Translations under genes and position numbers: made by a program
IMG/VR virus record: IMGVR_UViG_2706794686_000005
From: a virus
Taxonomy: Duplodnaviria; Heunggongvirae; Uroviricota; Caudoviricetes
Strand: one strand, 5' to 3'
DNA: 7,517 bases
Part shown: piece by piece, positions 1 to 7,506 of the stretch
Layout: the number at the start of each line of letters is the position of its first letter
Position numbering within the stretch: the stretch's first letter is position 1
The notes under the pieces: generated by a model
Told to the model about the DNA's origin: nothing
Database searches by the model: none
Seen by the model: the letters and a program-made list of their open reading frames with translations, nothing else

Positions 1-87
1 CCCCGGCAGCCTTCAGGGAAAAATATCATCAGATGGCTGCTTAAAAAAAGAACAAATGGTAGTGTCCGCTATTGCCAGTACACCTCA
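1..87. repeat. Left copy of an 87-bp perfect inverted repeat; its reverse complement is 7420..7506
   Basis: Manual reverse-complement of 7420..7506 matches 1..87 base for base; match breaks at 88 vs 7419. Window begins exactly at the repeat boundary. Confidence 0.9.
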
Positions 88-286
88 TCCATCACCGAAA
101 AAAATTGGCTTTTACACCATTGGCGATAAAAGCATTTACCTGTATGACCTACGCCGCATGGATGAAATCATGGAGGCTCTTGATAATCGTTCGTCGATGG
201 ATTGGTGTGTTGCTGTTCATGATATGAATGCAGGGTTTGATGAAAAGATTTTGTTCCCCTCATCAGTTGAAAGCACTGCGGGTTAA
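56..286 (+). CDS. Hypothetical protein (76 aa from ATG 56); frame is open back to position 2, so may be 5'-partial
   Basis: ORF in track; no Shine-Dalgarno before ATG 56 (aaaaaagaacaaATG); no in-frame stop between position 2 and 56; first 10 codons lie inside the inverted repeat. No family recognised. Confidence 0.35.
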   Translation: MVVSAIASTPHPSPKKIGFYTIGDKSIYLYDLRRMDEIMEALDNRSSMDWCVAVHDMNAGFDEKILFPSSVESTAG

Positions 287-296
287 GGAGTAACAC

Positions 297-464
297 ATGA
301 CCACTATTACCAAAGAACGTATTGAATTGTTCATTAAAAACCCGCTTGAAAACGGGCTTACCCGTGGTGAACAAATGGAACTGGCACGGATTGCGCTGGC
401 ATCGCTGGAAGCAGAGCCGGTTGTGTTCTGGTTTGAAAAATATCAAGAAGGGGCTACGGCATGA
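297..464 (+). CDS. Small hypothetical phage protein, 55 aa ([12 protein letters not shown]...); not in the ORF track (below length cutoff)
   Basis: Strong RBS AAGGAG at 285..290, 6 nt before ATG 297; stop TGA overlaps next start as ATGA at 461..464; shares motif [10 protein letters not shown] with the 114-aa ORF downstream. Confidence 0.5.
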
Positions 465-805
465 CGACTTTTACCAGAGAGCAGTTAATAGCTCACGCAG
501 AGGAGACTATTGAAGCACAGAGACTGTGCATACCGGGCACAATCGACCATGACATCATCCGCACATATAAGATGGATATTGCTGTTCTGGAAATCGCACT
601 GGTATCGCTGGCAGCAGAGCCAGCCGGTAAATTGCATGAATACAAACCAGTGGGATATCAGCGTCTGGTCGATGAGTTAACCATGCTGGTAAAGCAGTTA
701 ACCTGGCAACTGAGGAAAGCGAAGCCAGACTGCAAATTACCGGATAAGGCGATGAGTTATCTGGAGCGGAACGGACTGATAAGCGTGGAGGATATTTTAC
801 GATGA
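461..805 (+). CDS. Hypothetical phage nin-region protein, 114 aa
   Basis: ORF in track; ATGA overlap with upstream ORF; purine-rich aagggg 8 nt upstream; paralogous motifs shared with the 55-aa and 80-aa ORFs. No family recognised. Confidence 0.55.
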
Positions 806-885
806 CCTGGCCTGAAGCATTAACAACGGTAGGAATTGCGATGGCGGTGGCGCTGGTGGTGTATTCGATTTGCCGCTGGGGATAA
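802..885 (+). CDS. Putative small hydrophobic peptide, 27 aa ([27 protein letters not shown])
   Basis: ATG 802 overlaps the stop of the 114-aa ORF (ATGA); single predicted membrane-spanning hydrophobic stretch; too short for statistical support. Confidence 0.25.
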
Positions 886-1096
886 AAACGGTTTGCGGGA
901 AAAGGAGAGTTAAGTAGAATTGCAGCGGGTGCTTGAGGCTATCTGTCTCAGGCATGAACACCAAAAGGCAGATAGAGAAAAGCCCCAGTTAACATTACGC
1001 GTCCGGCAAGACGCTTAACATTAATCTGAGGCTCAATCTATGAACGGCAAATCTAGGTTAGCCTCTTACGTGCCGAAAGGCAAGGAGAAGCAGGCT

Positions 1097-1252
1097 ATGA
1101 AGCAGCAAAAGGCGATGTTAATCGCCCTGATCGTCATCTGTTTAACCGTCATAGTGACGGCACTGGTAACGAGGAAAGACCTCTGCGAGGTACGAATTCG
1201 AACCGGCCAGACGGAGGTCGCTGTCTTCACAGCTTACGAACCTGAGGAGTAA
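1097..1252 (+). CDS. hokD: Hok/Gef family type I toxin, 51 aa (host-killing membrane peptide); closest to HokD/RelF by memory
   Basis: Translation MKQQKAMLIALIVICLTVIVTALVTRKDLCEVRIRTGQTEVAVFTAYEPEE matches the Hok family signature (N-terminal TM helix, conserved Cys, C-terminal TGQTEVAVFTAYE) as I recall it; SD AGGAG at 1083..1087. An in-frame upstream ATG at 1040 (SD GAGG 1028..1031) would give a 70-aa extended form. Confidence 0.85.
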   Translation: MKQQKAMLIALIVICLTVIVTALVTRKDLCEVRIRTGQTEVAVFTAYEPEE

Positions 1253-1320
1253 GAGACCAGGCGGGGGAGAAATCCCTCGCCACCTCTGATGGGGCAGGCA
1301 TCCTCAATGCACCCACACTT

Positions 1321-1347
1321 AACCCGCTTCGGCGGGTTTTTGTTTTT
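1321..1347 (+). terminator. Rho-independent terminator after hok
   Basis: Stem CCCGC (1323..1327), TTCG tetraloop, GCGGG (1332..1336), followed by TTTTTGTTTTTATTTT. Confidence 0.7.
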
Positions 1348-1360
1348 ATTTTCAACGCGT

Positions 1361-1390
1361 TTGAAGTTTTAGATGGTGCCGGAATAGAAT
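1361..1390 (+). promoter_or_regulatory. Putative sigma70 promoter for the downstream operon
   Basis: TTGAAG (1361..1366), 18-nt spacer, TAGAAT (1385..1390); sequence match only. Confidence 0.3.
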
Positions 1391-1472
1391 CAAAAATACT
1401 TAAGTAGCGCGCAGGGAGAAGAGGGATGGACCCCGAACAGGGGAGTGCTATTTATCTGGAAGGATTCTGTTG

Positions 1473-1754
1473 ATGAAAATCGAAGAATTACGTGAAATTT
1501 TTAGTGAAGATGGCCTCTATACTGTGCGCGTTGAGAATGGCGCTATTGTCAGCCACTGCCTTCCAGACTACACAATTCTGATAATTCAGCCGTCTTTGCC
1601 AGCAGGCACGGGCGGCGCTCTCACGCATTTAAATCTGATTGGTACCAGCATCCCCCATGCACTGAAGAACAGGCCGAATGGCTCATTCAGTGTTACCGCA
1701 GGCGCGGATGCGAGGTTAAAAAAGCCCTTAGCCTCGACTACCGTCACTGGATAA
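1473..1754 (+). CDS. Hypothetical protein, 93 aa (MKIEELREIFSEDGLY...)
   Basis: ORF in track (TTG 1470 / ATG 1473); SD GGAAGGA at 1459..1465. Sits where rem-like genes lie upstream of ydfU in some prophages, but family not recognised. Confidence 0.45.
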   Translation: MKIEELREIFSEDGLYTVRVENGAIVSHCLPDYTILIIQPSLPAGTGGALTHLNLIGTSIPHALKNRPNGSFSVTAGADARLKKPLASTTVTG

Positions 1755-1829
1755 TCTCCGTCAGGCTCCCTTACTCCGAACGGCCAACGCGTCCGTCCCG
1801 CACATTCCAGCAACGGATCTGGAGGTAAT

Positions 1830-2888
1830 GTGCGGGTATTACTTCGACCTGTTCTGGTACCGGAACTCGGTCTGGTTATCGTTAAGCCAGGCCGTGAATC
1901 AATGTCAGCATTCCATAACGGCAGAATACTGGTGGAGCCGGAACCAAAAAGCATGCGTAATCTGCCGTCCGGGGTCGTTCCTGCCGCTCGCCAGCCGCTG
2001 GTGGAAGACAAAACATTGCTGCCGTTTTTCAGTAACGCACGGGTGATTCGTGCTGCTGGTGGTGCTGGTGCATTGTCTGACTGGCTGTTGCGCCATATTA
2101 AATCCTGCCAGTGGCCACACGGCGATTATCATCACAGCGAAACCGTCATTCACCGTTATGGTACCGGCGCAATGGTGTTGTGCTGGCACTGCGACAACCA
2201 GCTGCGTGACCAGACATCCGAATCACTCGAGCAACTTGCTCATCAAAACCTGTCAGCATGGATGATTGACGTCATCGGTCACGCAATAAGCGGTACGCAG
2301 GAGCGTGAATTATCTCTGGCTGAATTATCCTGGTGGGCGGTCCGCAATCAGGTGGCGGACGCGCTACCGGAAGCGGTATTACGTCGTTCGCTGGGGTTGC
2401 GTGCGGAAAAAATTCGCTCTGTGTACAGTGAAAGCGACATCATACCGGGAGAGCAGACAGCCACCAGCATACTGAAGCAGCGCACAAAAAATATTGCGTT
2501 ACTGCCTCACGTCCACCAGCAACAGAACCCACCACAGGAAAAGACGGTGGTCAGCATTGCCGTTGATCCGGAGTCACCGGCTCAGTATCTCCAGCGCCAG
2601 AAATCACAACGGGAAGAGATGCCTGTATACACGCGCTGGGTAAAAACGCAGAAATGCATGACGTGTGGCAATCAGGCAGATGATCCGCATCACATCATTG
2701 GTCATGGACTGGGAGGGATGGGAACAAAGGCTGATGATTTGTTTGTTATTCCGTTATGCCGTAAATGCCGTAACGAACTACATGCCGGAGTAAAAGATTT
2801 TGAAGAGAAACACGGCAGTCAGCTGTTGTTGCTGATTCGTTTTTTAATGCACGCGAGAAATTCGGGTGTTCTGAAGTGGAAAGCATAA
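1830..2888 (+). CDS. YdfU-like DUF968 family prophage protein, 352 aa, with C-terminal Cys/His cluster
   Basis: Long ORF; GGAGG at 1821..1825 before GTG 1830 (alternative start ATG 1902); C-terminal motif CMTCGNQADDPHH...CRKCRNELH resembles the DUF968 zinc-binding region; position immediately upstream of rusA and Q is typical. Confidence 0.75.
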   Translation: MRVLLRPVLVPELGLVIVKPGRESMSAFHNGRILVEPEPKSMRNLPSGVVPAARQPLVEDKTLLPFFSNARVIRAAGGAGALSDWLLRHIKSCQWPHGDYHHSETVIHRYGTGAMVLCWHCDNQLRDQTSESLEQLAHQNLSAWMIDVIGHAISGTQERELSLAELSWWAVRNQVADALPEAVLRRSLGLRAEKIRSVYSESDIIPGEQTATSILKQRTKNIALLPHVHQQQNPPQEKTVVSIAVDPESPAQYLQRQKSQREEMPVYTRWVKTQKCMTCGNQADDPHHIIGHGLGGMGTKADDLFVIPLCRKCRNELHAGVKDFEEKHGSQLLLLIRFLMHARNSGVLKWKA

Positions 2889-3269
2889 ATGACCGAGCGC
2901 ATAGAATTTGTTTTACCTTACCCGCCGACGGTGAACACTTACTGGCGTCGTCGTGGCAGCACATATTTTGTATCAAAAGCCGGGGAGCGTTATCGCCGGG
3001 CAGTGGCGCTTATTGTTCGCCAGCAGCGGCTGAAATTAAGCCTGTCCGGAAGGTTGGCAATAAAAATTATTGCAGAACCACCGGATAAGCGCCGCCGTGA
3101 CCTGGACAATATTCTGAAAGCGCCGCTGGATGCGCTGACGCATGCGGGGTTGCTAATGGACGATGAGCAGTTTGATGAAATCAATATCGTTCGTGCTCAG
3201 CCAGTATCTGGTGGACGTCTGGGGGTGAAGATTTATCCCATAATGCTTGAAGGGCAGGTCAAAAAATGA
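2889..3269 (+). CDS. rusA: Crossover junction endodeoxyribonuclease RusA (Holliday junction resolvase), copy 1, 126 aa
   Basis: Translation contains the RusA acidic core PDKRRRDLDN...DALT...DDEQ; start abuts the ydfU-like stop; stop overlaps next ATG (ATGA). Confidence 0.9.
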   Translation: MTERIEFVLPYPPTVNTYWRRRGSTYFVSKAGERYRRAVALIVRQQRLKLSLSGRLAIKIIAEPPDKRRRDLDNILKAPLDALTHAGLLMDDEQFDEINIVRAQPVSGGRLGVKIYPIMLEGQVKK

Positions 3270-3471
3270 AACTGGAAGATTTACCGAAATACTACTCCCC
3301 AAAATCCCCCGGCCTGACTGATGCATCGGCCTCAACGTCGAAAGATGCGCTGAGTATCACTGATGTGATGGCCGCGCAGGGCATGACACAGAATCGGGCT
3401 GAGATGGGGGTTTCTGCGTTCCTTGGGAAAATGGGCATTAGTATGAATGACAGAGAGCGGGCAACAGAATT
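3266..3471 (+). CDS. Lambda-Q-family antiterminator, N-terminal 69 codons only; 3' part lost in N-run 3472..3721 and probably truncated or chimeric
   Basis: MKLEDLPKYYSPKSPGLTDASASTSKDALSITDVMAAQGM... aligns with the lambda Q N-terminus (MRLESVAKFHSPKSPMMSD...SGTDVMAAMGM). In-frame sequence after the gap (WLSGDSGGQSTDIFCLWTRKVHGCFPLP*) does not resemble a Q C-terminus, and the total would be 180 aa at most. Confidence 0.5.
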
Positions 3472-3721
3472 NNNNNNNNNNNNNNNNNNNNNNNNNNNNN
3501 NNNNNNNNNNNNNNNNNNNNNNNNNNNNNNNNNNNNNNNNNNNNNNNNNNNNNNNNNNNNNNNNNNNNNNNNNNNNNNNNNNNNNNNNNNNNNNNNNNNN
3601 NNNNNNNNNNNNNNNNNNNNNNNNNNNNNNNNNNNNNNNNNNNNNNNNNNNNNNNNNNNNNNNNNNNNNNNNNNNNNNNNNNNNNNNNNNNNNNNNNNNN
3701 NNNNNNNNNNNNNNNNNNNNN
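3472..3721. other. N-run, 250 nt of unresolved or masked sequence
   Basis: Run of n in the sequence. Confidence 1.
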
Positions 3722-3887: not shown

Positions 3888-4130
3888 ATGACTTTTACCC
3901 CTGAACAATTGCGTAAACACGCGCAGGAAATGCTGCGTCATGCTGAACAACTCGAAAAAACGGGCATAACAAAAGACGCTATCCGTAAAGATATGGTACC
4001 CGCGCTTCGGGAACTGATGCAGGCGAAGCATCGCGCACAGAAAGCAGTAGATGAGCTGGTGGACTGTGTGGCAGAGCTGGAAACCAGAGTCGGAAAGTTT
4101 GAAAAACTGGTGCAGGAGGTGCTGCGCTGA
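3888..4130 (+). CDS. Hypothetical protein, 80 aa from ATG 3888 (85 aa from TTG 3873); predicted helical/coiled-coil
   Basis: ORF in track; stop TGA 4128..4130 overlaps the rusA copy 2 start (TGATG); N-terminus MTFTPEQLRKHAQE resembles the 114-aa [18 protein letters not shown]; weak RBS. Confidence 0.45.
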   Translation: MTFTPEQLRKHAQEMLRHAEQLEKTGITKDAIRKDMVPALRELMQAKHRAQKAVDELVDCVAELETRVGKFEKLVQEVLR

Positions 4131-4504
4131 TGCGCCATGAGTTTATTTTACCTTATCCGCCGACGGTGAATACTTACTGGCGACGTCGTGACAACACATA
4201 TTTTGTATCAAAAGCCGGTGAGCGTTATCGCCGGGATGTGGCGCTTATTGTCCGTCAGCAGCGACTGAAATTAAGCCTGTCCGGAAGACTGGCGATAAAG
4301 ATTATTGCAGAGCCACCGGATAAGCGCCGTCGTGACCTGGACAATATCCTGAAAGCACCACTGGATGCACTGACACATGCGGGAGTGTTAATGGACGATG
4401 AGCAGTTTGATGAAATCAATATCGTTCGTGGTCAGCCAGTATCTGGTGGACGTCTGGGGGTGAAGATTTACCCCATAATGCATGAAGAGCAGGTCAAAAA
4501 ATGA
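4130..4504 (+). CDS. rusA: Crossover junction endodeoxyribonuclease RusA, copy 2, 124 aa; divergent paralogue of copy 1
   Basis: Same RusA core motifs; SD AGGAGG at 4113..4118; differs from copy 1 at the N-terminus and at 7 internal residues, with many synonymous nucleotide differences. Confidence 0.9.
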   Translation: MRHEFILPYPPTVNTYWRRRDNTYFVSKAGERYRRDVALIVRQQRLKLSLSGRLAIKIIAEPPDKRRRDLDNILKAPLDALTHAGVLMDDEQFDEINIVRGQPVSGGRLGVKIYPIMHEEQVKK

Positions 4505-5175
4505 AACTGGAAGATTTACNNNNNNNNNNNNNNNNNNNNNNNNNNNNNNNNNNNNNNNNNNNNNNNNNNNNNNNNNNNNNNNNNNNNNNNNNNNNNNNNN
4601 NNNNNNNNNNNNNNNNNNNNNNNNNNNNNNNNNNNNNNNNNNNNNNNNNNNNNNNNNNNNNNNNNNNNNGCCCTTGTTGCTATGGGGAAAAATTTATTGA
4701 AAGCGTAGTTTTTACAAACAAGGTCCAGTATCCGGATGGTAAGCCGCCGGTATGGGCAAAGTGTACGAAAGGTGTGTATCCGTCTTACTGGGAAGAATGG
4801 AAAAAAGTCAGGGAGGTGGTAAAAGTTGCCTGTCCGGAGTGTGGCGGAAAGGGTGAGGTTTCCACCGCCTGTAAGGATTGCCGTGGGCGTGGTGTCGCCA
4901 TTCATCGTGAAGAGTCGGTAAAACGTGGTATGCCTGTTATCAGAGACTGCCAGCGTTGTGGTGGTCGTGGCTATGAAAGACTACCATCAACGGAGGCATT
5001 TAATGCTATATGCGAGGTGACAAACCAGATAACACGCGCGTCATGGGAAAAAACAGTTAAGAAATTCTATGATGCGCTGGTGACTCGGTTTGATATTGAA
5101 GAAGCATGGGCTGAGCGGCAGTTAAAAAAGGTAACTAGGTTGATTTTTCCGGAATCTGTGGTAAATTCGTCATAA
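4501..5175 (+). CDS. Q: Lambda-Q-family late-gene antiterminator, 224 aa; codons 7..56 masked by N-run
   Basis: ATGA coupling to rusA; first 19 nt identical to the Q fragment at 3266; zinc-finger-like CPECGGKG...CKDCRGRG...CQRCGGRGY and C-terminal TVKKFYDALV parallel lambda Q (CRDCHGTG...CGRCKGVGY...TVKPLYDALV). Confidence 0.8.
   Translation: MKLEDLXXXXXXXXXXXXXXXXXXXXXXXXXXXXXXXXXXXXXXXXXXXXXXXXXXXPCCYGEKFIESVVFTNKVQYPDGKPPVWAKCTKGVYPSYWEEWKKVREVVKVACPECGGKGEVSTACKDCRGRGVAIHREESVKRGMPVIRDCQRCGGRGYERLPSTEAFNAICEVTNQITRASWEKTVKKFYDALVTRFDIEEAWAERQLKKVTRLIFPESVVNSS
4520..4669. other. N-run, 150 nt, inside Q
   Basis: Run of n in the sequence. Confidence 1.
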
Positions 5176-5178
5176 CTA

Positions 5179-5215
5179 TGGGCGTTTTATGCCTGACGTT
5201 AGAAGAGTTTCTACA
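5179..5215. repeat. 37-bp direct repeat, copy 1 (tgggcgttttatgcctgacgttagaagagtttctaca), ending at N-run
   Basis: Identical to 5483..5519; true extent unknown because the inner side of each copy abuts N. Confidence 0.85.
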
Positions 5216-5482
5216 NNNNNNNNNNNNNNNNNNNNNNNNNNNNNNNNNNNNNNNNNNNNNNNNNNNNNNNNNNNNNNNNNNNNNNNNNNNNNNNNNNNNN
5301 NNNNNNNNNNNNNNNNNNNNNNNNNNNNNNNNNNNNNNNNNNNNNNNNNNNNNNNNNNNNNNNNNNNNNNNNNNNNNNNNNNNNNNNNNNNNNNNNNNNN
5401 NNNNNNNNNNNNNNNNNNNNNNNNNNNNNNNNNNNNNNNNNNNNNNNNNNNNNNNNNNNNNNNNNNNNNNNNNNNNNNNNNN
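5216..5482. other. N-run, 267 nt, in the expected pR'/qut position downstream of Q
   Basis: Run of n in the sequence. Confidence 1.
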
Positions 5483-5519
5483 TGGGCGTTTTATGCCTGA
5501 CGTTAGAAGAGTTTCTACA
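5483..5519. repeat. 37-bp direct repeat, copy 2
   Basis: Identical to 5179..5215. Confidence 0.85.
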
Positions 5520-5662: not shown

Positions 5663-6370
5663 ATGCTAAAACAGCAGGATATGACAGAAACCGCCAGAGT
5701 GGTGTTTAATGAATTAAGCGTTNNNNNNNNNNNNNNNNNNNNNNNNNNNNNNNNNNNNNNNNNNNNNNNNNNNNNNNNNNNNNNNNNNNNNNNNNNNNNN
5801 NNNNNNNNNNNNNNNNNNNNNNNNNNNNNNNNNNNNNNNNNNNNNNNNNNNNNNNNNNNNNNNNNNNNNNNNNNNNNNNNNNNNNNNNNNNNNNNNNNNN
5901 NNNNNNNNNNNNNNNNNNNNNNNNNNNNNNNNNNNNNNNNNNNNNNNNNNNNNNNNNNNNNNNNNNNNNNNNNNNNNNNNNNNNNNNNNNNNNNNNNNNN
6001 NNNNNNNNNNNNNNNNNNGATTGAGTGTTTGTTATACGGTCTAATGGTTTTTTCAGCATTAAATATTTATCATTCATATGGTGTGGGTAGAGTGAATATT
6101 GATGAGGCGTCGGGGTGTTTCATCCTTAGGCAGCGTATTGATATAGTCAATGCAGCACGAGCAAAGGCCTTCAGCCGTTTGACAGTTTTGTTCTGTACTC
6201 CTGATCGTCTTTCGGGAAGAGACGTTATTATTCTGAATAGTGATGCTATACAGAGGGTTTGCGATGAGTTCATGGTTGCTAATTCAGAATTATTTGCTCT
6301 TGTTCAGGAGTACAACAGAATAGCCAGGACCTGTGGTATGGATGAACTTCGGATTACTCATCTGGGGTAG
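5663..6370 (+). CDS. Hypothetical cargo protein; 235 aa only if N-run 5723..6018 preserves frame and hides no stop; otherwise two genes
   Basis: Good RBS (aaaaggaaaag) before ATG 5663; 117 open codons after the gap; AT-rich codon usage with rare AGG/AGA/ATA/CTA; competing minus-strand ORF 5706..6077 lacks an RBS. No family recognised. Confidence 0.4.
   Translation: MLKQQDMTETARVVFNELSVXXXXXXXXXXXXXXXXXXXXXXXXXXXXXXXXXXXXXXXXXXXXXXXXXXXXXXXXXXXXXXXXXXXXXXXXXXXXXXXXXXXXXXXXXXXXXXXXXXXIECLLYGLMVFSALNIYHSYGVGRVNIDEASGCFILRQRIDIVNAARAKAFSRLTVLFCTPDRLSGRDVIILNSDAIQRVCDEFMVANSELFALVQEYNRIARTCGMDELRITHLG
5723..6018. other. N-run, 296 nt, inside the cargo ORF
   Basis: Run of n in the sequence. Confidence 1.
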
Positions 6371-6696
6371 ATACATATCTGGATTATCACCTGTTACGGT
6401 AAAAAGTGATTGCTTACTGTTTTTGTGAATGGCATTGCAGCAGCCGGATAATGTCAGTGCTGGCTGACGGTGTGCTGGTGGCGGGTGTGGTGGTTGTTGC
6501 TTTCCCGTTGCTGAAAAAGAAAACGCCAGACTGTTAGCCGGGTATCAGTTAGCGGGAGAAATTTTTAAATACTTCACAATTCAGGCGGTTGACTGTTGTC
6601 TGGTTTGCGGGGAGTTTGTTAAAAGAAACTGGCATGGTGAATCCCCCTGTGCGGAGGGGCTGTTTATATTGATTTTGTCAGATGTGAGTAAACTCC

Positions 6697-7032
6697 TTAT
6701 GGACTTTGTTGTTTTAGTCCATAAGGACATATTTGCAGAGTGCAACGGTTATTAAAGCATTCATTCAATACGTTATCTGTATTTGTAGGGCATTCCTGGC
6801 TATTTTTGATTGAATTCCAGAATGTTTTATTGAATGGTACTACGTTGTAAATGGTTACAGGTAGCACTTTGTTATTGAGCATGATGCCTGTGTGAGTCAG
6901 TGTAAATATACTTTCAGGAGGTAAGAAAGCATCCGATTGATACCAGATTATTAATTTTATTTTACTCCATATGACTGAAAAAGATATTCCGCATGATGGC
7001 TGGATAACTGTATCAATCACAATCCACTTCAT
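6697..7032 (-). CDS. Hypothetical protein, 111 aa, Cys/Trp-containing, in AT-rich DNA
   Basis: Minus-strand ORF with no overlapping plus-strand gene; RBS AAGGA about 6 nt before the ATG (plus-strand 7030..7032 is cat); candidate promoter TTTACA-N17-TACTTT upstream on the minus strand. No family recognised. Confidence 0.45.
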
Positions 7033-7292: not shown

Positions 7293-7466
7293 ATGGCATT
7301 TAAACACTATGATGTTGTCAGGGCGGCGCCGCCGTCAGATCTTGCGGAAAAGCTGACACATAAACTGAAAGAGGGCTGGCAGCCGTTTGGTAGTCCGGTG
7401 GCCATAACCCCTTATACCCTGAGGTGTACTGGCAATAGCGGACACTACCATTTGTTCTTTTTTTAA
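7293..7466 (+). CDS. Small hypothetical phage protein, 57 aa (MAFKHYDVVRAAPPSDLAEKLTHKLKEGWQPFGSPVAI...); last 15 codons encoded by the right inverted-repeat copy
   Basis: ORF in track from ATG 7278; ATG 7293 preferred because of ggaaag upstream; the GWQP.G motif is reminiscent of small phage proteins in the DUF1737 class, but that is uncertain memory. Confidence 0.4.
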   Translation: MAFKHYDVVRAAPPSDLAEKLTHKLKEGWQPFGSPVAITPYTLRCTGNSGHYHLFFF

Positions 7467-7506
7467 GCAGCCATCTGATGATATTTTTCCCTGAAGGCTG
7501 CCGGGG
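7420..7506. repeat. Right copy of the 87-bp perfect inverted repeat (reverse complement of 1..87)
   Basis: Verified by manual reverse-complement in 10-nt blocks; followed by 11 nt (agatattcccc) to the window end. Confidence 0.9.

Follow-up and report, generated by a model that had tools for sequence, protein, structure and literature searches.

A 7,517 nt stretch of DNA from a Caudoviricetes virus (IMG/VR record IMGVR_UViG_2706794686_000005), here called the window, carries at positions 892-1346 what is very probably an intact hok/mok/sok type I toxin-antitoxin module with the mechanism of plasmid R1 hok/sok. An earlier note on the same DNA, made from the letters alone, had described a hok locus, the structure of its mRNA and a possible Sok-like antisense promoter, and that description is borne out by an Rfam match, by homology with the phage 933W locus, by RNA folding and by covariation. 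The locus is real, it was correctly recognised, and the system is already well known. By its sequence the module appears to belong to the HokD/HokW clade, the type borne by lambda-like prophages.

The DNA is 92.7% identical over 465 nt to the annotated mokW/hokW/sokW locus of 933W. The toxin open reading frame (ORF) matches Pfam PF01848 HOK_GEF with 81.6 bits (cut-off 22, E 3e-23), and the plus strand at 927-1102 matches the Rfam sok family RF01794 with 112.4 bits (gathering score 59, E 1e-25). No insertion sequence (IS), frameshift or truncation is found in the module. Every element is present, intact and conserved with covariation, all regulatory elements obey the covariation of the family, and the Sok promoter is the experimentally tested promoter of sokW. 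The transcripts, 3′ processing, translational coupling, RNase III cleavage and biological role given below are read across from work on R1 and on 933W/Sp5. Coordinates of the elements are in Table 1.

Table 1. Elements of the hok/mok/sok module, in window coordinates (SD, Shine-Dalgarno sequence; UTR, untranslated region; MFE, minimum free energy structure)
Element	Position	Strand	Description
hok/mok promoter	892-920	+	weak putative -35 TTTGCGG (892-898), -10 TAGAAT (915-920)
full-length hok mRNA	927-1343	+	predicted start and end; Rfam match begins at 927, terminator downstream
tac (translational activator element)	927-938	+	5′-terminal GGGUGCUUGAGG; nearly invariant in the family
nascent-transcript hairpin (metastable type)	929-955	+	929-939 with 945-955; MFE 5′ structure of the 3′-truncated RNA
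leader hairpin (ctatctg/cagatag)	939-975	+	10 bp, 939-948 with 966-975; -14.1 kcal/mol, z -2.8
Sok antisense RNA	978-1048	-	predicted, 71 nt; coordinates transferred from the 933W misc_RNA sokW
ucb / anti-SD box	980-987	+	AAGCCCCA; partner is the mok SD 1027-1032 (closed form) or tac, 927-934 with 980-986 (open form)
Sok-target hairpin in hok mRNA	988-1025	+	imperfect; complement of the Sok stem; z -2.9
mok SD GAGG	1028-1031	+	8 nt before ATG 1040
mok ORF	1040-1252	+	70 codons, in frame with hok, common stop; length and position as annotated mokW of 933W
Sok promoter	1055-1083	-	-35 TTGCCT (1083 to 1078), 17-nt spacer, -10 TAACCT (1060 to 1055)
invariant AGCCUCUUAC box and hok-SD hairpin	1060-1087	+	1063-1067 with 1083-1087; hok SD AAGGAG 1082-1087
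long-range coding-region helix	1095-1232	+	1095-1105 (hok start region) with 1221-1232
hok toxin ORF	1097-1252	+	51 aa; HOK_GEF match
3′UTR hairpin (ggcggggg/ccctcgcc)	1260-1281	+	9 bp, one G-U; 1260-1268 with 1273-1281; -18.8 kcal/mol, z -3.8
fbi (fold-back inhibitory element)	1302-1314	+	CCUCAAUGCACCC; 12 bp with one bulge to tac
intrinsic terminator of hok mRNA	1321-1346	+	stem 1321-1327 with 1332-1338, then T-run; z -4.1

The Hok peptide of the window is identical to K-12 HokD at 51/51 residues and to 933W HokW at 47/51 (92%), and is 42% identical to R1 Hok. The upstream in-frame start, which had been placed together with its SD at 1028-1042, is found at ATG 1040, where it opens the 70-codon mok frame behind the GAGG. 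This GAGG corresponds to the mok SD of R1 (PMC9841398), and GAGGC is kept across the family alignment. The overlapping mok frame with an SD of its own, as the hok/sok family requires, is present; by analogy with R1 its translation would be coupled to that of hok. As a separate observation, Hok codon 47 is UAC followed by G (1235-1238, plus strand) and forms UACG, the motif for A-to-I editing by TadA. Tyr-to-Cys recoding at the conserved codon-47 position is reported for the hokC, hokD and hokE mRNAs, at 6% for K-12 hokD (PMC12214031), and TTACGAA around this codon is nearly invariant in the family alignment.

The antisense side of the locus lies on the minus strand. TTGCCT-17-TAACCT has a single minus-strand match in the window, at 1083 to 1055, exactly where the antisense promoter had been proposed, and it equals the sokW promoter of 933W. 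Positions 1054-1119, with both hexamers and the spacer, are 100% identical to 933W. The mutagenic primer YO-421 of Takada et al. changes TAGGTTA to CCGGCTC, which corresponds to window 1054-1060 and includes the proposed -10 (PMC8621323). In 933W/Sp5, hokW is toxic, sokW RNA is detected on northern blots, and sokW expressed from its own promoter neutralises HokW toxicity; a promoter-less sokW mutant loses protection, which is partly restored by sokW in trans (PMC8621323). The statement that the function of the antisense partner is unknown is thus superseded for the hokW-sokW locus. Of the 30 loci printed, most, the R1 type among them, have at this position a promoter with TTGCCT, TTGACC or TTGCGC, 17 nt, and TAACCT, TAATCT or TATCCT; in a few the spacer is 16 nt or the Sok -10 is divergent. 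Both the hok and the Sok promoter went unflagged in a generic consensus promoter scan, and the loose pattern TTG-N20-TAnnnT is expected about 4 times in the window by chance. The Sok promoter call therefore rests on homology and on the published mutagenesis.

Transfer of sokW gives an RNA from 1048 to 978, as expected from the proposed promoter, and this RNA covers the upstream start and its SD. The predicted Sok folds at -31.4 kcal/mol (z -5.3) into a long hairpin with a 14-nt single-stranded 5′ tail (1048 to 1035) and a 3′-end U-tail, GGGGCUUUU. The 5′ tail is complementary to the mok start, and the RNA spans both the mok SD and the AUG. An antisense RNA from a convergent promoter, complementary to the mok initiation region as in other members of the family, is thus predicted for the window. 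It should be noted that positions 1035-1052, i.e., the Sok 5′ tail and mok codons 2-5, have a mean pairwise difference of 0.36 among 7 close relatives, compared with 0.10 overall, and that the promoter and hairpin on either side of them are invariant among these relatives. Such divergence may keep co-resident prophage copies orthogonal, with copy-specific Sok/hok pairing.

The Rfam match lies on the plus strand, and a Sok gene on that strand was considered and rejected: sokW of 933W is annotated opposite to the strand that the model hits. RF01794 also matches an R1-type plasmid locus and the 933W locus on the strand of the hok mRNA; thus the plus-strand match is a result of how the model was built and is not a property of this locus. 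Two further Rfam matches, to IsrK (25.8 bits, gathering score 50) and RsmX (24.8 bits, gathering score 56), both at 1256-1342 on the plus strand, are below threshold. These alignments rest on the 3′UTR GC hairpin and the terminator, and are judged to be structural coincidence.

The sense promoter is recognised mainly by its -10. A -10-like hexamer ends 6 nt before a conserved GGGTGC/GGCGC in 28/28 family members, despite unrelated upstream flanks; TAGAAT, TATAAT, TACAAT, TATATT and TAGTAT occur, and the R1 type has TATGAT. The putative -35 was placed from the spacing alone. The transcript would start at about G927, with its predicted 5′ end showing homology to that of R1-type hok mRNA, GGCGCUUGAGG. 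The leader had been described as 886-1039; this stands from about 927 onward, whereas 886-926 is promoter, as judged by the start of the Rfam match and the fixed-distance -10. A terminator was expected 3′ of the 3′UTR hairpin and is present, with its stem at 1321-1338; the same terminator is found in K-12 hokD.

For the analysis of mRNA structure, 53 related loci were retrieved from Escherichia, Shigella, Kluyvera, Citrobacter, Pseudocitrobacter, Photorhabdus, Erwinia and others. A set of 26 non-redundant members from seven genera was aligned with MAFFT and a consensus structure derived with RNAalifold; the values for covariation refer to this set. The window RNA 927-1345 has an MFE of -169.5 kcal/mol (z -6.6), and in the MFE of the full-length RNA tac is paired with fbi. 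The tac/fbi duplex has an energy of -21.5 kcal/mol compared with -13.7 +/- 2.1 for a shuffled 3′ region, and 2/2000 shuffles were as good. Of all 13-mers at 927-1200 (the first 274 nt), it is the 5′-terminal one that pairs best with the 3′ end, and its complement is found 341-382 nt from the 5′ end in 36/38 relatives with a full leader. In Photorhabdus the pairing shows the compensatory change U4-A to C-G, in Kluyvera G12-C to A-U. Thus the fold proposed as a check for long-range pairing of the two mRNA ends does show it, and the pairing is conserved and compensated across 26-38 relatives. However, the fold-back element is not the 1260-1281 hairpin to which that role had been given, but the sequence at 1302-1314, which pairs with 927-938.

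The consensus structure has 95.8% of the alignment cells paired, compared with about 43% in slid controls, and shows 21 compensated pairs; 0/500 shuffles were as good. It keeps the 5′-3′ helix, the leader hairpin, the ucb/mok-SD helix (982-987 with 1027-1032), the hok-SD hairpin, the coding-region helix and the 3′UTR hairpin. The hairpins are thus supported beyond chance by covariation in the 26 relatives. The inverted repeats noticed earlier all fall within hairpins. The ctatctg/cagatag repeats, at 939-945 and 969-975, lie inside the leader hairpin (consensus helix 2), which is 99% paired and has one pair changed from A-U to U-A/G-C with compensation. The gcgtc/gacgc repeats, at 999-1003 and 1010-1014, form the tip of the longer Sok-target hairpin; this tip (alignment columns 91-112) is an insertion confined to the Escherichia/Kluyvera clade. 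The ggcggggg/ccctcgcc repeats, at 1260-1267 and 1274-1281, form the 3′UTR hairpin (consensus helix 13), whose stem is 9 bp if one G-U pair is counted and shows 3 compensated pairs. In R1, according to mutagenesis, the processed mRNA is protected against exonucleases by a stem-loop that remains at its 3′ end (PMC9841398), and by analogy the 1260-1281 hairpin is likely to be this protective 3′-terminal stem-loop. The hok-SD region helix (consensus helix 4) is 99.2% paired, and the coding-region helix (consensus helix 6) is 97.3% paired with 3 compensated pairs.

The model for R1 comprises a tac/fbi closed form with ucb masking the mok SD, 3′ processing, a tac/ucb open form and a metastable 5′ structure (PMC9841398). 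The alternative partners of tac that characterise the family, the metastable hairpin and ucb, are both found in the window, as is the masking of the mok SD by ucb. The nascent-transcript hairpin has 96.2% of cells paired and 4 compensated pairs, with 0/500 shuffles matching it. A U-to-C change in column 4 is compensated both in this hairpin and in fbi, i.e., there is coupled covariation on tac. The ucb/mok-SD helix shows compensatory changes in its extension, and when the 5′ domain 927-990 is folded in isolation its MFE is the tac/ucb stem. Positions 1060-1065 pair with the mok SD region 1028-1033 in MFE folds and are a candidate dcb, by analogy with the R1 locus.

From these elements, and following the R1 model, the module would work as follows. 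The weak promoter would give a stable mRNA of about 415 nt from near G927, whose 5′ end folds locally as the 929-955 hairpin during transcription. In the finished transcript tac would be paired with fbi, ucb (982-987) would mask the mok SD and a local hairpin the hok SD, so that mok and hok remain untranslated and Sok binds poorly. Slow 3′ trimming to the 1260-1281 hairpin would then remove fbi, allowing tac to pair with ucb and freeing the mok SD; translation of mok would open the hok start and yield the 51-aa membrane toxin. Toxin synthesis would normally be prevented by the short-lived 71-nt Sok, made from the convergent promoter with a start near 1048, whose free 5′ tail pairs with the mok start region, so that mok translation is blocked and the duplex cleaved. 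Where Sok synthesis stops, either because the element is lost or because the prophage is induced, the pool of processed hok mRNA would kill or permeabilise the cell. Activation by 3′ exonucleolytic processing, RNase III cleavage of the Sok-hok duplex and killing upon Sok decay are established for R1 (PMC9841398) and in part for hokW-sokW (PMC8621323).

Several points weigh against an intact module of this kind. The hexamers of both the hok and the Sok promoter match the consensus poorly, and the initial transcribed sequence of Sok differs from that of sokW, a difference that might in principle affect promoter escape or stability. The tac/ucb stem is 98.7% paired in the family; its pairs are, however, invariant and hence without covariation support. 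In the 3′-truncated RNA the whole-molecule MFE prefers the nascent-type 5′ hairpin, and a structure constrained to contain tac/ucb is 4.7 kcal/mol higher; thus the argument for the open conformation comes from the isolated-domain fold and from conservation. In addition, native chromosomal hok loci tested so far gave no post-segregational killing (bioRxiv 10.1101/2025.08.07.668861), and the copy of the module in the window is known from its sequence alone.

Comparison with known loci places the module closest to hokW/mokW/sokW of 933W and Sakai Sp5 (GenBank AF125520; Takada et al. 2021, PMC8621323), which likewise has a mok of 70 and a hok of 51 codons. Tac, ucb, the Sok-target hairpin, the 3′UTR hairpin and fbi are the same in both. 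The differences are 4 C-terminal residues of Hok, a cluster of changes at window 1043-1053 in the Sok 5′ tail and mok codons 2-5, and divergence after fbi, the terminator of the window being of the K-12 type. The two modules also differ in genomic position: that of 933W is near the tail-fibre end of the record, whereas that of the window is in a nin-like region.

R1 hok/sok (parB), the prototype, is a plasmid addiction module, whereas the module of the window is prophage-borne. The order of elements is the same in the two: the -10, GG(G/C)GCUUGAGG tac, the leader hairpin, an AAGCCCC ucb, the mok SD GAGG, the AGCCUCUUAC box, a convergent Sok promoter TTGCGC-17-TATCCT, a CAAGGAG hok SD, a GC hairpin in the 3′UTR, and an fbi complementary to the 5′ end. 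The R1 leader hairpin has a loop 16 nt larger than that of the window, and in the window clade the Sok-target hairpin is extended by 22 nt relative to R1. No match to the R1-type locus was obtained by blastn with the window mRNA. Since the similarity is too low for blastn, the kinship is drawn from the Rfam model, the MAFFT alignment and the element-wise comparison, and in this form the alignment to R1 that had been suggested upholds the assignment. Chromosomal Escherichia loci of the hokC/gef type (mokC/hokC/sokC), about 74% identical (L015-L022), have all of the window helices. They form a separate clade in a core-chromosome context, with Hok 80-82% identical and without the hairpin extension.

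If the mechanism is that of R1, there is an even chance that its role is other than prophage stabilisation, namely faster lysis and phage release upon induction, or abortive infection. With hokW-sokW, growth arrest occurs about 40 min earlier and Sp5 release is doubled after mitomycin C, and induction leads to a RecA-dependent loss of sokW RNA (PMC8621323). R1 hok/sok lowers T4 plating, and prophages show an enrichment for hok genes (bioRxiv 10.1101/2025.08.07.668861). In the window hok is sense-oriented within the early-right (nin-like) operon of a lambdoid prophage, upstream of DUF968-RusA-Q, and it is followed, as in the Qin/lambdoid early-right region, by a rem-like ORF, DUF968, RusA and a Q-like gene. 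However, sequence features do not tell addiction, lysis and abortive-infection roles apart, the Sp5 effects reported are modest (about 2-fold), and the results from 933W/Sp5 may not transfer to the window because the module lies elsewhere in that phage genome. Prophage addiction, help with lysis or release as in Sp5, and abortive infection are thus held as candidate roles, with less certainty than the identity of the module.

It is conceivable, though rather doubtful, that induction itself acts on the module through read-through from pR. N-antiterminated transcription would pass the hok terminator and occlude, or collide with, the convergent Sok promoter, so that Sok vanishes and stored hok mRNA is translated. 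Transcriptional interference on Sok would then serve as a built-in induction sensor, and would answer why sokW RNA disappears in a RecA-dependent way, a question left open by Takada et al.

It is improbable that the module is intact in sequence and yet physiologically silent, domesticated or decaying like the hok copies of K-12, with Sok always outcompeting the toxin and no role left to it. The K-12 hok genes are mostly inactivated (PMC12214031), and native chromosomal hokA, hokB and hokC, as cited in a preprint (bioRxiv 10.1101/2025.08.07.668861), gave neither post-segregational killing nor a response to rifampicin. Of 5426 complete E. coli genomes, 4937 have sequence related to the module, at 2 places in the median and at 10 at most, and therefore any one copy may be redundant. 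On the other side, inactivating lesions are absent from the module, its regulatory elements are present and consistent with covariation, and hokW-sokW, 92.7% identical, is a working toxin-antitoxin pair with an induction phenotype (PMC8621323). Moreover, 1619 genomes (about 30%) have the exact 47-nt segment 1022-1068, which spans the Sok tail, -10 and mok start, at >=99% identity, with no annotated feature beneath the matches.

The comparison with K-12 bears on the same question. DNA of the Qin prophage gene hokD (relF) is about 98% identical to the window from 1084 through the terminator into rem, and the order relB-relE-hokD-rem-ydfU has rem and ydfU/DUF968 downstream as in the window. Everything upstream of about 1084 is replaced by relBE in K-12, and no RelE or RelB ORF is found among the window ORFs upstream of hok. 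Because homology begins just past the Sok -35, K-12 hokD is without the hok promoter, tac, ucb, the mok start and the Sok gene and promoter, all of which the window keeps. An inactive, truncated hokD relic was accordingly considered for the window and rejected, as 892-1083 is retained and is homologous to 933W and other full loci. The alignment to a known inactive chromosomal relic, which the earlier note had named as a refuting result, was thus run against K-12 and shows that the window does not have the truncated form. It follows that the toxin is not unregulated, the alternative raised in that note; all regulatory elements are present. From its sequence K-12 hokD appears to be a truncated derivative of a prophage module like that of the window, which looks like the untruncated form.

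That the minus-strand promoter is inactive in the window variant, leaving hok to be controlled by mRNA folding and mok coupling alone, is hardly credible: its hexamers agree with the consensus at 4/6 and 3/6 positions and escaped the scan, a generic pattern of this kind turns up often by chance and the first 12 transcribed nucleotides differ from sokW, but the -35, spacer and -10 are base-for-base those of functional sokW at a position kept back to R1, and a hok module lacking Sok would be expected to be lethal once its mRNA is processed.

RefSeq labels loci of this type “hokD” alone, with mok and sok unannotated. The value for annotation is a full module with element coordinates that can be transferred to loci labelled in this way. 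The value as a discovery is small: this is a textbook type I system, hokW-sokW is characterised, and about 30% of complete E. coli genomes carry the exact variant.

Other features of the window lie outside the module. A hydrophobic ORF of 27 codons, on the plus strand at 803-885, has an ATGA overlap with the stop of ORF 461-805 and runs to just short of the hok promoter. This ORF is conserved in 933W; the 933W and E. coli Ch1 records examined carry no annotation for it. Also on the plus strand, between the hok terminator and the rem-like ORF (ATG 1473), a promoter-like TTGAAG-18-TAGAAT at 1361-1390 is kept in K-12 Qin. Two genes for RusA Holliday-junction resolvase are found, at 2889-3269 and 4130-4504, each followed by a Q-like ORF. 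The rusA copies are 91.9% identical in DNA over 381 nt (2904-3284 and 4139-4519), and the paired rusA-Q looks like a duplicated or recombined module.

The window has no tRNA genes. Runs of N occur at 3472-3721 (250), 4520-4669 (150), 5216-5482 (267) and 5723-6018 (296) and break the Q-like ORFs and those downstream; the third run lies between the two copies, 5179-5215 and 5483-5519, of a 37-nt direct repeat. The window ends are a perfect inverted repeat of 87 nt (1-87 and 7420-7506). The best E. coli genome matches to window 1-3471 start at base 88, and base 87/88 is therefore taken to be a junction, from either a prophage rearrangement or an assembly artefact. Downstream of the Q-like region, positions 6603-6790 on the plus strand match Rfam STnc100 below threshold (37.8 bits, gathering score 47, E 1.4e-5), with a well-conserved CCCCCUGUGCGGAGGGG hairpin.

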